This document shows, in pieces, positions 5,405 to 32,798 of a DNA stretch of 64,000 nt (position 1 is its first letter; every line of letters begins with the position of its first letter). The notes under the pieces are model-generated. The model was not told the origin of the DNA and ran no database searches. It was given only the letters and a program-made list of their open reading frames with translations. Origin of the DNA: a virus. Location of the stretch: the IMG/VR virus record IMGVR_UViG_3300028829_002760, positions 32,001 through 96,000 of that record. One strand, given 5' to 3'. Made by a program: the position numbers and the translations under genes.

Positions 5405-5513
5405 TAAATTTTATTTGTTTAAACTATAAACCCCAGATAAAAATATCTAGGGCTTATATACAGAAATCAGAATGTATGGAAAATTAGATAGTGTAAATCT
5501 AATAAATTTTTTT

Positions 5514-6401
5514 TTAAATAGGAAACAATTTACTATCAACTTTTTTTATAGTCATAGGTTTTGATTCTTTAACTGTAAGCTCTAAAATTCTACCACCTAA
5601 TGGTTTTGGTGGAGCACCTCTCTCAACATGCCACCCTTTACTTCCATCTTCGTATTCTTCTTTATACGTTCCAGTAATGCAATGATGTATTTGTTTATGT
5701 TTTAATCTATATCCTGTATTTGCCCGATATTCTAAATCTTCTCTAACATCATTACGAGATGCATTCTCATGTATATGCCCCATAGAAAAAATATCCATTC
5801 CTTCATACATCTCTAACGCTCTTGTCAAATTAAGAGCCCCCTTGGTAACAACCCCTCCCCCACCAGATCCGTGAAAGTATTTATGTTTAAATGAAGCTGT
5901 CTTAGGTTTTATAGAGTTTTTCCTTCCTATATCAAGGGTATATACAATCCAGCCGCCATATCCTCCCAACTTAATATCTGTATTATGTTTAAGATTCATC
6001 ATTTGCACAAATCTTTTTAATACATCAGTTTCTTGCCACTTAATAATAGCAGTCTCATGATTACCATAACCTATAACTGTAATTAGATGAGCATAGGGGG
6101 CCCACCATTCTACCGCAGTATCCACAACTGAATCTAAGTAATGAGAATTATTATGTTCGGGGAGAATATCACTCTTATTCTTCCTATTATCTCCTCTACC
6201 TTGCATAAGACAGAACATATCCCCTACTATAACAATAGGTATACTCTCTTTCTTACAATAGTTTAAATGTCTTTTTAATAGTTTTCTGTCACACTTAGGG
6301 TTATCCCAATGTATATCTGATAGTATTGCTATGTATGCTTTATTCCCTGTAAGATATATATTGTGGACATTCTTTTGAATTTCTCTAACTTTCATTGCCA
6401 C
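5514..6401 (-). CDS. Calcineurin-like metallophosphoesterase
   Basis: SDIH, VGD, GNHE, FHG and GHIH motifs in canonical order. Confidence 0.85.
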   Translation of the reverse strand: MAMKVREIQKNVHNIYLTGNKAYIAILSDIHWDNPKCDRKLLKRHLNYCKKESIPIVIVGDMFCLMQGRGDNRKNKSDILPEHNNSHYLDSVVDTAVEWWAPYAHLITVIGYGNHETAIIKWQETDVLKRFVQMMNLKHNTDIKLGGYGGWIVYTLDIGRKNSIKPKTASFKHKYFHGSGGGGVVTKGALNLTRALEMYEGMDIFSMGHIHENASRNDVREDLEYRANTGYRLKHKQIHHCITGTYKEEYEDGSKGWHVERGAPPKPLGGRILELTVKESKPMTIKKVDSKLFPI

Positions 6402-9074: not shown

Positions 9075-9376
9075 TACATTAGAAAGGCTGTAAGTGTTAT
9101 TTAACACATAGTAGTATTTATACTGCAACAGCGTATACCTAAGCAAGTAGATAAACTGCTTAAACTTCTTAAACCAAAATGTCAGTTCCTACTCTTTAAC
9201 TAAAAGAGAGATAAAACATAGATAATTTTTATAACTGTTATTAAGACAAGTCTACTGACCGTCAACAGTTCTGGTTTATTATCCGTGTTTATCATTTAAC
9301 TTGGAGAGAGATGAATAATAGTAGTCTCTCTCCATAATTAAAACGTTATCATTGAAACCAAATAATACATATATAT

Positions 9377-9619
9377 ATGAATACAGTAATGATTACAACA
9401 GGAAAAGCAGATGCAATTAATGTATTTTGTGAAGAAATGAATACAATTGATTTTAAATTAATTGATTTACAACAAAAGCTCTATAATATAGAGTTAACCC
9501 AAAACCAAATTAATAAGATATGTGCTATGTCTTATTTAGACAAAATTTGGTTAATAGCACAATATAAGAAAGATATTAGAGTGACTGAAACGTCTCCTGA
9601 TTTATCTATTTTATATTAA
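9377..9619 (+). CDS. Hypothetical protein
   Basis: 80-aa ORF. Confidence 0.5.
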   Translation: MNTVMITTGKADAINVFCEEMNTIDFKLIDLQQKLYNIELTQNQINKICAMSYLDKIWLIAQYKKDIRVTETSPDLSILY

Positions 9620-9625
9620 GATCTT

Positions 9626-9849
9626 ACGGACATAAAGAGTTCCTATTAACTATGGTGGTTAGGTGTGGAAACACATCTGATCACTACCTAAAACAGATTA
9701 CTCTTCGTTCGTTTTCAGACACAGAATGTTCCTATTTAACTATAGACAAAAAAGAAATACATTCCGTCTGATTTTTTAAACACAAAGAGACATAGAAAGT
9801 TCCTATTTTAAACCAAGATAGAAAAAATACTTTCCGTCTTTTTGTGTTT
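9626..9849 (+). ncRNA. Tandem array of three covarying stem-loop RNA units (9626-9712, 9715-9771, 9778-9849)
   Basis: Each unit is GAC-AYA-N4GT-TCCTATT-variable loop-T-ACN4-C-GTY; inner stems AAGAGT/ACTCTT, GAATGT/ACATTC and GAAAGT/ACTTTC covary. Confidence 0.75.
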
Positions 9850-9953
9850 TGTTAAAGTACCATTCCAACTTCCCAAGGGTTGGCAGTTTATACTGAGTAC
9901 TGAGGGGCAAACACTTATTTATACATTTATTTATACACTTAAAACAAGAACTT

Positions 9954-11744
9954 ATGAAAGAGATCTTATTGTTCGGCAAAGCACTGAACACAAAAAACGT
10001 TAGTCCAATCACTGTGAATGAATTGGCAATTAGTAAAGGGTATGTAGTTGACCCTGAATGTTGTAATCAAAGAGTTGTAGACTTTTTAAATAGCATTCCA
10101 AATAATTACAATACTACTTTTTATGCATCTGTTGCAAATGTTGTAGCAAAAGATAGAGTTGAATTACTTATGGATCAGCTTTTACACTATGCATCTACGT
10201 ATGGTACTGAATATGCAGGTCAAGTATTTGTTGTTAATGAAAACTTTGGTGTTATTGATGAACCTACAATTGATTTTAATGATTGTAAAGTTATTAAACC
10301 TATTACTCGAACAGAGATTGGTATCAAAGTGCAAGATATGCTTGCTTCTGGTATTGCTCTAAAAAGTGATACACTTGACAATTTATTTAGTCTTATTGAA
10401 GAATACAATTTTCAAATTGATATCAATGTTGTTAAAAACATTGAAGCCAAGATGAAATTGTACTCAATACTTAACATTCTACCTAGTACAGCAGATGAAT
10501 TTGTTAGATATATGGTTTATCAGATTACTGAAGATACTCTTTTAATCAAAAACGATGAGATGATTAATAAAATTGCTCTTCAATCCCATAATCAAGTACA
10601 TATGATTAATATCAATGAACAAATGATAAAATTTGGATTAGAAGAACTATCTAGTGTCTTCTTTAGATACAAACCACTATTTCTTGCATTGAGAAAACAA
10701 GGTGTTATGATGCGTAGAATTACTAACAAGTTGAGAAAGCTTGCTAATAAGCATCACAAACCATTTGTTCCAGGTTATTGGGAAACTATTCTTAGTAAAA
10801 CGAATTTTAATGTTCAAGAACTTATGTCTAAGGTTAAATCTATATCTAACTTTAAGTTAGTAAGATTGATTAAGGCAATTGATGTTAATTCATCAGGTTC
10901 AGACAAAAGATTCTTTTTAATTAGAAATGGTAAGACTTTTATTAAGGAAAATAACAATATCGAAATTCCTTCTGGTCAATTATGGATGAGAGAAATCTTT
11001 ATGCAATCTCTTATTAATAATTTAAAAGAAAAGAACTTAGGTAGAGTTAAACTTTCTACTAATATTAGACTTGCAATACCTACTTCAGAGAAGACATATG
11101 TTGGTAATATTCCATTTGGTAGCTATATCATTCCTTCAAAAAGTAATTCTATTTTTGGAATTAACTGGTTTGGAGAAGATGGAGCTCAAGATTTGGATTT
11201 ATCATACATGAGTCTTGATGGTAATAAGATTGGATGGAACAGTAATTATTATACTGAAAGCAATTCTATTGTTTACTCTGGAGATATGACATCTGCTAGA
11301 CCTGAAGCTTGTGAATATATGTTTTGTAAGGAAGGACTTCGAGATGGTGTTATTTATGTTAATGCATACCATGCACAACCTAACTCTAAATACAGATTCT
11401 TCACTGGTAAAACTGATGATGATTTTACTGTAAGTAGTGAGACTCCATCTGAAGATATGATAGACTTTTCTTCACCAATGGAAATTACAGGTGAAAGCTG
11501 TGTTGGTTTTTATGTAGATGGTCGTATCTATTTCTCTGATCTTAATCAGGGTAATAGCCGTGTGAGTAATGCTAATACAAGAGTACTTGATACAATTAAA
11601 CATTTTATATCTACTAAAGATTCTTTTGTTTATTGGGATGAAATACTAACTCTTGCGGGTTGCAAGATAGTTGTTGATAATGAGGAGTGTGATGTTGATC
11701 TTAGTGACGGAGACGTTTCTACTATGATATCACTCTTATCATAA
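9954..11744 (+). CDS. 596-aa protein: helical N-terminal region plus C-terminal TerD-like domain
   Basis: C-terminal GINW...DLDLS...IGWN...YSGDMT...E resembles TerD motifs; N-terminal NTTFY...DQLLHYASTYG. Confidence 0.55.
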   Translation: MKEILLFGKALNTKNVSPITVNELAISKGYVVDPECCNQRVVDFLNSIPNNYNTTFYASVANVVAKDRVELLMDQLLHYASTYGTEYAGQVFVVNENFGVIDEPTIDFNDCKVIKPITRTEIGIKVQDMLASGIALKSDTLDNLFSLIEEYNFQIDINVVKNIEAKMKLYSILNILPSTADEFVRYMVYQITEDTLLIKNDEMINKIALQSHNQVHMININEQMIKFGLEELSSVFFRYKPLFLALRKQGVMMRRITNKLRKLANKHHKPFVPGYWETILSKTNFNVQELMSKVKSISNFKLVRLIKAIDVNSSGSDKRFFLIRNGKTFIKENNNIEIPSGQLWMREIFMQSLINNLKEKNLGRVKLSTNIRLAIPTSEKTYVGNIPFGSYIIPSKSNSIFGINWFGEDGAQDLDLSYMSLDGNKIGWNSNYYTESNSIVYSGDMTSARPEACEYMFCKEGLRDGVIYVNAYHAQPNSKYRFFTGKTDDDFTVSSETPSEDMIDFSSPMEITGESCVGFYVDGRIYFSDLNQGNSRVSNANTRVLDTIKHFISTKDSFVYWDEILTLAGCKIVVDNEECDVDLSDGDVSTMISLLS

Positions 11745-11751
11745 TACTACT

Positions 11752-11779
11752 GAGCAGGATGTAAAAGTCCTGCTCTTTT
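11752..11779 (+). terminator. Intrinsic terminator
   Basis: GAGCAGGA/TCCTGCTC stem plus TTTT. Confidence 0.65.
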
Positions 11780-11826
11780 AAACTTATTTATTTACTTATT
11801 TATATACTTATTAAAAACTTAAAAAA

Positions 11827-12312
11827 ATGGCAAAAGAATTAGCAATTATTGTTGATGTAGATGGTACATTGGCAGACATGAGAGGTATTAGAGGACCTTT
11901 TGAGTGGGACAAAGTCCACCTTGATAAACCTCATCAAGATGTTATTGACCTTGTTAAAGATTTAGCAGGTGTTGAAGAGATTGATCAATTAAAATATTTT
12001 GATGATGGAACGTCTGGAGAGCGGTTTACAAAAATACCTAAATATAAAATCATCATTACTACAGGTAGAGATGGTGTTTGTGAAGAAGCAACTAGAAAAT
12101 GGTTGAAAGATAATGGAGTATGCTTTTATGATTTTTATATCAGAAAAGCAGGTGACTTTAGGAAAGATAACATCATTAAGTCTGAGATCTATATGGATCA
12201 TATCAGACCTAAGTATGATGTTAAGTTTGTCATTGATGACAGAGACCAGGTTGTTGAGATGTGGAGGTCATTAGGTCTACGTGTCTTACAAGTAGCACCA
12301 GGAAACTTTTAA
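11827..12312 (+). CDS. HAD-family polynucleotide 3'-phosphatase (like the T4 PNKP phosphatase domain)
   Basis: DVDGT, TGR, K and IDDR motifs; C-terminal QVAPGNF. Confidence 0.85.
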   Translation: MAKELAIIVDVDGTLADMRGIRGPFEWDKVHLDKPHQDVIDLVKDLAGVEEIDQLKYFDDGTSGERFTKIPKYKIIITTGRDGVCEEATRKWLKDNGVCFYDFYIRKAGDFRKDNIIKSEIYMDHIRPKYDVKFVIDDRDQVVEMWRSLGLRVLQVAPGNF

Positions 12313-12366: not shown

Positions 12367-13209
12367 ATGATTACAATGGAAAAAATTACATTTTTAGCAG
12401 CAAAAGATTTATATGACCAGCAGTATAAATTTATAATAGAGCAAAATACAGATTACCAAAAATTACAATTTTATCAAGGTTCAGTATATAGTTTTAATTA
12501 TACAACTAAAAAAGAAACAGATACTCATATTTATTGGAGCACATCTAATAAAAAACCAATGCTTGAGAATGATAAATTGTTTTTTAAACATAAAAACATA
12601 GAAGGTGCTTCTTATGACAAAGAAACTAAGAAGATTAAAATATGGTTTGGTAAAAAGTTTAATCATATTGACTCTATTATGTCAAGTGATATATTAAAAA
12701 CTTTAGTGCCGTGGTATGAAGTAAATACTAATTTAGATTTTATGAATGGAAATCATAATAGTTATCTTAATATGATGACTAATGAAATACTCAATAAAAT
12801 GGTTAAAGGTACTATTAAAGATACTAAAGGTATTATAGATGCATTTTGTAAGTATAGTCCTTATCGTAACTTTAATTTAAATACTAAAAAAATAGAATTT
12901 ATTATAAATAATTCATCAGGTTATTGGAATATTAGAAATTTTAAATTAATATTTTTAGCATCAAAGGAGCCCAATGATGTGATTAACTATATTCATAAAA
13001 ACCTAAATACACACTACGTAAAATTAGATGAGTTAATTAACATATCTAGAGTAGCTTTGTCTATAGGACAGAATATTGACATTAATTGGAGCCATGAAGA
13101 ATTAGTTGAAAATAAAATGAAAATGTTAGATTGTAGACAAGAATTAAAGAGAATACATAATGGTTTATTAGGTCTTCATTCTGAAGAGGTAGAGGATTTA
13201 CCATTTTAA
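12367..13209 (+). CDS. Hypothetical protein
   Basis: 280-aa ORF. Confidence 0.7.
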   Translation: MITMEKITFLAAKDLYDQQYKFIIEQNTDYQKLQFYQGSVYSFNYTTKKETDTHIYWSTSNKKPMLENDKLFFKHKNIEGASYDKETKKIKIWFGKKFNHIDSIMSSDILKTLVPWYEVNTNLDFMNGNHNSYLNMMTNEILNKMVKGTIKDTKGIIDAFCKYSPYRNFNLNTKKIEFIINNSSGYWNIRNFKLIFLASKEPNDVINYIHKNLNTHYVKLDELINISRVALSIGQNIDINWSHEELVENKMKMLDCRQELKRIHNGLLGLHSEEVEDLPF

Positions 13210-31625: not shown

Positions 31626-32798
31626 ATGAGTGATCAAACACAATTAAACGTAGGAGAATTAAAAGACTTTATTAAACACATGGTTAAGAATAACCAGCAA
31701 ATACAAGCTGAAGGTAAAGTTCCTGTAGCTATTAATATTGAAGGTGATGCGGGTCTTGGTAAGACTTCTGCTATTATGCAACTTGGTAATGAATTAGAAA
31801 TGCAAGTTGTAAAGTTGAATTTATCACAGTTAGAAGAATTAGGTGACCTTGTTGGTTTTCCTGTAAAAGAATTTCAAATTCAAAATAAAGAAGGTCAAAC
31901 TACTTGGATCAATGAATCTCAAATAAATGCGGCAAGTACAAAAGGTTACAAAGTAATTAGTAAAAGAATGTCTCATGCAGCACCTGAATGGATTGAAGGT
32001 AAAGGTGAAGGTGGGTTTTTAATTCTTGATGATTATACTCGTGCTGATGCAAGATTTATGCAAGCAACTATGGAAATCTTAGATAGACAAGAATATGTCT
32101 CTTGGAAACTTCCAAAGAACTGGCATGTAATCTTAACTACTAATCCAGATAACGGAGACTATAATGTAACAAGTCTTGATGTAGCTCAGAAGACTAGATT
32201 TATATCTGTAGAGTTAAAATATGATGCTGAAATTTGGGCTAAGTGGGCAGAGCATGCAAGTATTGATGGTAGATGTATAAACTTTATGTTAATGCATCCA
32301 GAATTAGTTACTCAAAGAGTAAATCCAAGATCTATTACTACATTTTTTAATGCAATTAGTTCTGTTGGGAAGTTTGATGAAGAACTCCCTCTTATTCAAA
32401 TGATCGGTGAAGGTTCTGTTGGTGTTGATTTTAGTTCAATCTTTACTAGCTTTATTAATAATAAGCTAGATAAGATTATTGGTCCTAAAGACATCCTGGA
32501 AAAAGATGAACAATATGTATTAAATACATTAGTATCTGCTGTGGGTAAAGATGATGCATTTAGAGCTGATATTTCTAGTGTTATTGCTACCCGTGTAATT
32601 AACTATTCTTTAACTTTAGCTGAGAAAGGTTCAATAGGAAAAGACGTAATTGATAGATTAGCATTACTTTCTACAGAATCTGAGTCTTTTACAGATGATC
32701 TAAAATACTATATGATTAAAGAAATAGTAAACGGAAACAAATCTAAATTCCAGAAATTGATGATGAATCAAAAGGTGGTGAAGATGGCTGTAAAGTAA
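31626..32798 (+). CDS. MoxR-like AAA+ ATPase
   Basis: GDAGLGKT, LILDDYTRA, TTNP, TRF, NPRS; next to the vWA gene. Confidence 0.85.
   Translation: MSDQTQLNVGELKDFIKHMVKNNQQIQAEGKVPVAINIEGDAGLGKTSAIMQLGNELEMQVVKLNLSQLEELGDLVGFPVKEFQIQNKEGQTTWINESQINAASTKGYKVISKRMSHAAPEWIEGKGEGGFLILDDYTRADARFMQATMEILDRQEYVSWKLPKNWHVILTTNPDNGDYNVTSLDVAQKTRFISVELKYDAEIWAKWAEHASIDGRCINFMLMHPELVTQRVNPRSITTFFNAISSVGKFDEELPLIQMIGEGSVGVDFSSIFTSFINNKLDKIIGPKDILEKDEQYVLNTLVSAVGKDDAFRADISSVIATRVINYSLTLAEKGSIGKDVIDRLALLSTESESFTDDLKYYMIKEIVNGNKSKFQKLMMNQKVVKMAVK

Follow-up and report, generated by a model that had tools for sequence, protein, structure and literature searches.

The subject of this study is a tandem array of three hairpin-forming units, together with the gene that follows it, in a 64,000-nucleotide stretch of virus DNA (positions 32,001 to 96,000 of IMG/VR record IMGVR_UViG_3300028829_002760; hereafter, the window). 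The gene codes for a protein of 596 amino acids. As judged from sequence comparison, the three units are probably genes for small structured RNAs of an uncatalogued family, in which a constant handle bears a variable cargo. These RNAs would assemble with the protein encoded next to them into a particle built on a plan similar to that of Ro60 and Y RNA. Recurrence of the RNA-gene pair in most of the phage, bacterial and archaeal loci compared argues that it is probably an RNA-protein particle not described so far. In our best reading, the pair would be an analogue, not a homologue, of Ro60/Y RNA. The original prediction had made structured RNAs the partners of the 596-residue protein, and this part is strongly supported by comparative evidence. 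Its two further suggestions, that a neighbouring phosphatase belongs to the system and that the locus resembles a type III toxin-antitoxin system, are not supported.

RNA structure is under selection

The architecture originally proposed for the three units was recovered base for base (Table 1). In each unit, an outer stem ending in GAC pairs with GTC (with GTT in the case of unit 1), an A-Y-A loop faces a single C, and a 6-bp inner stem leads to an apical loop that begins with TCCTATT. Unit 2 is made of the handle and a short A-rich loop, without structured cargo, and the U-rich 3′ arm of unit 3 continues into TTTTGTGTTTTGTT. The plus-strand RNA of the array folds into exactly these three hairpins, at -67.6 kcal/mol (z -6.8); of 200 shuffled sequences, none was as stable. 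The fold of the minus strand was weaker (z -3.1). Three copies of the 19-nt core pattern are present in the 109,934-bp virus record, all of them in the array and on the plus strand. Using the covariance model R2 described below, unit 3 scored 63.8 bits (E 1e-16) and unit 2 61.2 bits (E 7e-16) on the plus strand; unit 1 gave 50.8 bits when the whole genome was searched and, when matched locally without filters, 32.2 bits. The G-U pairs in the stems, the score of 64 versus 12 bits for the plus and minus strands of the array and the orientation of the matches in other genomes (see below) all agree with the plus-strand RNA that had been predicted. A scan of the window for tRNA and transfer-messenger RNA found none, and blastn against 50,697 phage records gave no match. 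No terminator was found in a scan for sigma-70 promoters and terminators, which was uninformative.

Array size varies among close relatives, since locus L133 (2759-2890), which encodes a 65% identical protein and has the fullest shared gene order, carries two units and the window three. The extra unit of the window is unit 1, the bearer of the 15-bp cargo hairpin. Directly 3′ of the array, a conserved element (9851-9905) is kept in the relatives L123 and L133 with a covarying stem (TCAC/GTGA) and occurs once in the genome. It folds no better than shuffled sequences and is not matched by model R2. Its loop, UCCCAAG, loosely resembles the UCCUAUU of the handle. This element could be either a minimal unit that has degenerated or a signal for the gene that follows. 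Elsewhere in the window, a weak model match (23 bits, E 0.004-0.06) was observed on the minus strand at 5482-5542, in an AT-rich hairpin containing TTCCTATT. This hairpin lies at the 3′ end of a 295-residue minus-strand open reading frame (ORF) and lacks the A-N-A/C loop; it is probably a chance match or a terminator-like hairpin.

The units are members of an RNA family that is uncatalogued in Rfam 15. At gathering scores, no Rfam 15 family matched any part of the window, as the original prediction would have it. At E <= 10, region 9300-10100 gave only noise, and the YrlA model (RF02553) did not match the units. When IMG/VR was scanned for the exact pattern, 119 stretches came up, mostly by chance. 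A complementary inner stem, the C and an outer stem closed the half-motif in 13 loci, as compared to about 0.02 closures expected by chance (a rough estimate made by hand, not computed by a tool). These 13 loci lie on unrelated contigs of 9 to 320 kb and often hold two or three tandem units. Alignment A2 (25 sequences), the seed of which was picked by requiring nine complementary bases, showed 96% pairing, and three outer pairs outside the selection criteria covaried too.

A model, R1, and then a second one, R2, built from 106 copies, were derived. Among the 106 copies, 95.7% of the cells are paired and 376 cells are altered on both sides. None of 500 shuffles reached this covariation, and controls in which the partner was slid showed 36-46% pairing. 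The consensus of the handle reads R-R-C/A-N-A/RRRAGU/UCCU(A/U)U...U/ACUYYY/C/GYY. In it, the R-R-C end of the outer stem covaries, the two A bases of the A-N-A loop are kept at 95% and 96%, and the G-C and U-A pairs closing the inner stem at 97% and 100%. The UCCU sequence is invariant (106/106), the U of the following (A/U)-U is found in 94% of the copies and the U preceding the 3′ arm in 93%. The bulged C is conserved at 99% (105/106). The control, 934 kb of DNA from unrelated viruses sharing the 19-nt half-motif, gave no match at E <= 0.01.

The partner protein and its linkage to the RNAs

Relatives of the 596-residue protein form more than 1,270 clusters at 50% identity, nearly all of 570-650 residues and none annotated. 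Searches of Pfam, PHROG and NCBIfam gave no match for this protein or for five other family members, and a profile search of PDB sequences with the protein family returned nothing. Nothing describing the RNA, the protein or the pair was found in Rfam, Pfam, NCBIfam, PHROGs or a literature search of incomplete coverage. From these searches, the RNA family appears to be new, and so does the protein family.

An AF2 model built from 46 sequences had a mean predicted local distance difference test score (pLDDT) of 88 and a predicted template modelling score (pTM) of 0.83. The TerD-like C-terminus announced by the original prediction was recognized by its fold. Using VIA, residues 395-548 matched the TerD structure 2qz7_B with a Z score of 8.5 (root-mean-square deviation 3.1 over 134 residues) and 2kxt with a Z score of 7.4 (136 residues). 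A lead in the same direction came from the ESM Atlas (cosine 0.90 to a cluster with TerD in 22% of its members). The Pfam TerD model PF02342 gave no match at E <= 0.1 with six family members. The D-x-D and S-G-D motifs (D413, D415 and S442-G443-D444) are invariant, and, from this invariance and the known features of TerD, would fit a TerD-type metal site. Foldseek with the full model against the PDB returned only meaningless matches, with template modelling scores of about 0.1. When the N-terminal domain was folded alone (pLDDT 74) and searched VIA-wide, the best matches were helical hairpins of ribosomal proteins (Z 6.4) and no fold was assigned. Structural relatives in BFVD come from Campylobacter phages IBB35 and CP21 and from Lactobacillus phage LpeD. 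A HEPN Rx4-6H motif near residues 261-268 was considered and dropped, its Arg not being conserved in the wider alignment A4.

Linkage was studied in loci fetched by the protein alone, 77 from viruses (73 with upstream DNA) and 80 from prokaryotes. As anticipated in the original prediction, most homologues of the protein have units near their genes. At least one unit was present within 3 kb in 60 of the 73 virus loci having upstream DNA (60/77 overall). Units were also found in 76 of the 80 prokaryote loci, mostly less than 400 nt upstream, and two of the four prokaryote loci without units have almost no upstream sequence. Taking both sets together, about 136 of 153 loci show the RNA linked to the gene in the same orientation, and in 230 matches out of 230 the strand of the units is that of the gene. 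Most units lie within 400 nt upstream of the gene. Some are downstream (L137, L138, L178, L247 and L251), in part directly so, and others, for example in L008 and S-CBWM1, are found 2.5-30 kb away within tRNA clusters. The prokaryotic hosts include Bacteroidales, Chryseobacterium, Flavobacterium, Kordia, Fibrobacter, and Methanobacterium and Asgard metagenome-assembled genomes (MAGs).

The reverse search, with the RNA pattern alone, gave 11 records, nine of which encode the protein (E 1e-119 to 1e-181). In five of these nine, the units are 19-600 nt upstream of the gene. The two records without the protein are fragments, 2% and 18% complete. Among 50,697 records searched with tblastn, the protein was found in three distinct cultured phages only, S-CBWM1, S-CRM01 and Phass-1, and all three carry units too. 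Overall, a covarying plus-strand RNA structure under selection, the breadth of the family and a near-obligate, co-oriented linkage to the gene can be taken as shown.

Table 1. Features of the array, the partner gene and the adjacent phosphatase gene (window coordinates)
Feature	Position	Strand	Remarks
RNA unit 1	9626-9712	+	handle with 15-bp hairpin cargo; from sequence, fold and model R2
Unit 1, outer stem	9626-9631/9707-9712	+	ACGGAC/GTTCGT, one G-U pair
Unit 1, internal loop	9632-9634 opposite 9706	+	ATA opposite C
Unit 1, inner stem	9635-9640/9700-9705	+	AAGAGT/ACTCTT
Unit 1, loop start	9641-9647	+	UCCUAUU
Unit 1, cargo	9653-9686	+	15-bp hairpin, four G-U pairs, GAAA loop
RNA unit 2	9715-9771	+	TCAGAC/ACA/GAATGT/TCCTATT ... 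ACATTC/C/GTCTGA
RNA unit 3	9778-9849	+	14-bp outer stem, ATA, GAAAGT/TCCTATT ... ACTTTC/C; short A-rich loop
Conserved element directly 3′ of the array	9851-9905	+	small hairpin CCAAC/GTTGG, loop UUCCCAAGG, then GAGGGG
Partner gene, 596 residues	9954-11744	+	helical N-domain and TerD-fold C-domain
Helical domain (residues 1-390)	9954-11123	+	two small beta elements
TerD-fold beta-sandwich (residues 395-548)	11136-11597	+	followed by a short helical tail
HAD_PNKP 3′-phosphatase domain, 161 residues	11827-12312	+	PF25109, 150 bits; without kinase domain

Cargo, proposed particle and alternative readings

In the window, the cargo is small: one GAAA-capped 15-bp hairpin and two A-rich loops. In other genomes, the same handle bears hairpins capped by GNRA or UUCG. 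In L118, the cargo is a whole tRNA-like domain that has a tetraloop in place of the anticodon loop and ends in CCA. L070 and L150 hold permuted tRNA-like domains, which run from the T arm through a closed acceptor hairpin to the D arm. Several cargo domains matched the Rfam YrlA model (RF02553) below threshold, at 32-37 bits (E 9e-5 to 3e-3; gathering score 69). A 252-kb phage carries about ten different units in a row. Some ARAGORN calls of "tRNA-???" with 2- or 4-nt anticodons fall inside units (L118 7632-7706; L150 2048-2123; L206, which is S-CBWM1, 6099-6275), and these calls are cargo. In S-CBWM1, the partner gene (gp22) and gp23 are closely followed by two annotated pseudo-tRNAs, which may be the cargo of divergent units unmatched by model R2. 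The units of S-CRM01 (L207, NC_015569.1, 3574-3808) overlap g173, a small coding sequence for a "hypothetical protein" on the opposite strand. Those of Phage Phass-1 (L208, 6982-7393) overlap a similar small annotation, WIC39680.1. Both annotations are probably spurious.

Phage genes of the family and their RNAs are often located within tRNA gene clusters. In Flavobacteriia, the neighbours include RtcB (15 loci), a WYL-WCX regulator (14 loci) and RlaP (10 loci). In Bacteroidales, the pair has housekeeping genes around it, for example rplI and gyrB, and no tRNA clusters. Among the virus loci, no other protein is a conserved neighbour of the pair.

The gene following the partner gene in the window does encode the predicted PNKP-type phosphatase (Table 1). 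Its match to phrog_505 covers only positions 160-295 of 295. The suggestion that it belongs to the system was not sustained: this 3′-phosphatase adjoins the partner gene in 3 of 86 loci, all close relatives, and is a lineage-specific neighbour rather than part of a conserved module. Neither RtcB nor an Rnl2-type ligase was found in this genome. After the phosphatase gene, an ORF of 280 residues (12367-13209, plus strand) is kept in the four relatives L130-L133 and matched nothing in Pfam, PHROG or the PDB sequences. Far from the array, positions 39662-63999 hold three giant consecutive minus-strand ORFs of 2,553, 3,457 and at least 2,074 residues. The 2,553-residue ORF has no PHROG match, and the layout may resemble that of the giant virion proteins of crAss-like phages.

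From the whole of these data we infer how the RNAs may be processed, bound and used. They would be transcribed on the plus strand ahead of the 596-residue gene and released as separate small RNAs, possibly by tRNA-processing enzymes, as the flanking tRNAs in other phages suggest. The constant handle consists of the outer stem ending in R-R-C, the 3x1 loop A-N-A/C and the 6-bp inner stem, topped by a loop that opens with the invariant UCCU, continues with (A/U)U and ends in U; the variable apical region is the cargo. The helical and TerD-fold protein most likely binds the invariant handle, giving a particle, and the cargo would confer its specificity on each particle, in the way that the modules of Y RNAs do for Ro60. 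Judging from the neighbouring RtcB, RlaP and WYL genes, the tRNA clusters and the phosphatase found locally, the particle would likely act in the repair or surveillance of RNA or in conflicts related to tRNA.

Several observations weigh against such a particle. The N-terminal domain has no RNA-binding fold recognized by Foldseek or VIA. In alignment A2, covariation is inflated for the seed-selected pairs because nine complementary bases were required. Thirteen virus loci have the protein without a unit within 3 kb; when five of these records were searched whole, three had no unit (one of them being 93% complete) and two had a unit elsewhere. The loci were not de-replicated and several are near-identical pairs, so that the counts overstate independence. 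In the window itself, a tethering role is not evident, since the units carry little or no cargo. Lastly, a position just upstream of the gene and on its strand fits a cis-acting leader too.

This leader is the main rival, though we consider it unlikely. The hairpins would then be operators in the 5′ untranslated region of the 596-residue gene, controlling its translation or mRNA stability when bound by the protein itself or by some other factor. Ribosomal-protein leaders and T4 translational operators act as such cis sites. The usual location of the units, within 400 nt upstream on the same strand, agrees with this proposal, and in some loci (L011/G001) the units end about 20 nt before the start codon. 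However, the leader model is weakened by the downstream copies in the five loci listed above and by the remote copies 2.5-30 kb off in tRNA clusters, as well as by arrays reaching about ten units with varied cargo, including the tRNA-like domain ending in CCA. In addition, two small ORFs separate array and gene in L123.

Even less probable are decoys or processing modules that do not need the protein and act on factors of the host, for example nucleases directed at tRNA, RNase P or Z, or modification enzymes. In this case, RNAs and gene would merely be co-inherited, both residing in tRNA or RNA-repair neighbourhoods. The tRNA-like cargo and the tRNA-cluster location seen in relatives would be accounted for. 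However, the handle and not the cargo is the invariant part, and it tracks one gene over phages, Bacteroidota, Fibrobacter and archaeal MAGs without any other common neighbour. The Bacteroidales loci, among housekeeping genes, have no tRNA clusters to explain such co-inheritance.

Generic punctuation of the transcript by terminators, RNase III/E sites or stabilising hairpins having no dedicated partner is very improbable. The units are indeed simple hairpins and unit 3 ends in a U-rich tract, but their loop and bulge nucleotides (UCCU and the bulged C) are invariant, the terminator scan found none, the 934 kb of control phage DNA held no match, and the handle is conserved only where the partner gene is present. 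Finally, a DNA-level role as recombination site, origin or attC-like folded single strand can practically be discarded: the hairpins, imperfect and with extrahelical bases, are broadly similar in shape to attC sites or IS200/IS605 ends, but the strand asymmetry, with its G-U pairs and 12 bits against 64, rules out DNA hairpins of the attC or IS200 type, all 230 matches are co-oriented with the gene and no recombinase or transposase is a conserved neighbour.

The particle of handle RNAs and partner protein, preferred here, could have a wider meaning, which we put forward tentatively and with slightly less than even confidence. It may represent a new and widespread class of ribonucleoproteins, in which a helical and TerD-fold protein and a conserved handle serve interchangeable cargo (hairpins, whole or permuted tRNA mimics), a convergent counterpart of Ro60/Y RNA used by cells in RtcB-centred repair and by phages as arrays. 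Phages would have grown arrays of up to about ten tRNA mimics within their tRNA clusters, plausibly as bait, tether or shield against tRNA-directed host defences. If this is true, more than 1,200 clusters of unannotated proteins, all of one family, would gain a function and a family absent from Rfam would be added to the known RNAs. The "pseudo-tRNA" calls and doubtful small coding sequences annotated in phage tRNA clusters would be explained, and a testable link would be made among phage tRNA arrays, RNA repair and tRNA-targeting defence. Cultured carriers exist, namely cyanophages S-CRM01 and S-CBWM1 and isolates of Chryseobacterium and Flavobacterium.

Comparison with Ro60/Y RNA and other known systems

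Tandem RNA units next to a protein gene, likely cut into single units, recall CRISPR arrays and ToxI. However, what is conserved here is a structure with about 20 scattered nucleotides, not a repeat sequence, and the variable part is a structured insert instead of a spacer. The array is not a CRISPR, as had been stated from the start: stem sequences differ while the structure is kept, and no cas families are nearby. Neither cas nor ToxN-like genes were found among the neighbours by Pfam, PHROG or neighbour comparison, and nothing points to the type III toxin-antitoxin arrangement that had been suggested. As in the TerD family (PF02342; 2qz7, 2kxt), residues 395-548 form a beta-sandwich. Unlike in that family, it is fused to a 390-residue helical domain, there are no ter operon genes nearby, and the context is RNA and not tellurite or phage resistance. 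The HAD_PNKP phosphatase domain is an RNA-end healing activity and links ORF 11827-12312 to the T4 Pnkp pathway; in contrast to T4-type Pnkp, with its kinase and HAD phosphatase, this 161-residue ORF has the phosphatase half only.

Three further likenesses were set aside. A K-turn was dropped, the inner stem beginning with Watson-Crick and not G.A pairs. T-loop mimicry by GUUCCUAUU was dropped as well, R57 and A58 being missing. The likeness of GAAAGTTCCTATT to an FRT half-site was judged a coincidence.

Among well-studied particles, Ro60/Y RNA is to our knowledge the only one with a modular non-coding RNA that mimics tRNA and both gates and tethers an RNA-surveillance protein. Homology to it at the sequence level was rejected. 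None of six family members matched the TROVE model PF05731 at E <= 0.01-0.1, and an hhalign comparison with seven Ro60 proteins of Bacteroidia gave a probability of 0.2%. The profile search of PDB sequences, which should cover whatever Ro60 chains have been solved, was negative as well. No Ro60 chain was among the Foldseek and VIA matches of the whole model and of the N-domain model, which, with a pLDDT of 74 for the latter, still allows for the HEAT-repeat ring of TROVE proteins. This phage and five host genomes with the pair were searched for TROVE proteins and none turned up, in line with a protein that replaces Ro60 rather than one that assists it. The C-terminal domain is a TerD beta-sandwich and not the vWA domain of Ro60. 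The handle also differs from the Ro-binding motif of Y RNAs, which is GNCGAAN0-1G in YrlA and GGUCCGA in animals (Chen et al. 2014, PMC4201824).

The plan, in contrast, is similar in several respects, as the original prediction had supposed. Like Y RNAs (YrlA/YrlB), the units would be modular non-coding RNAs that join a conserved bulged stem to a variable module able to mimic tRNA. This mimicry, YrlA-like in appearance, is seen in the cargo of relatives, the cargo of the window being a plain hairpin or absent. The RNA genes adjoin the protein gene, at the frequencies reported above, and a helical domain is followed by a metal-binding-type domain, as in Ro60. The Salmonella rsr-yrlBA-rtcBA operon has two Y RNA genes, yrlB and yrlA, as compared to up to about ten units in the present arrays. 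The Flavobacteriia pair lies beside RtcB, as in that operon, and also beside RlaP and WYL genes. Adjacent genes, a handle with tRNA-like cargo and an RtcB operon context would thus be a logic common to both systems and, should the particle exist as proposed, the Ro60/Y RNA design would have arisen more than once.

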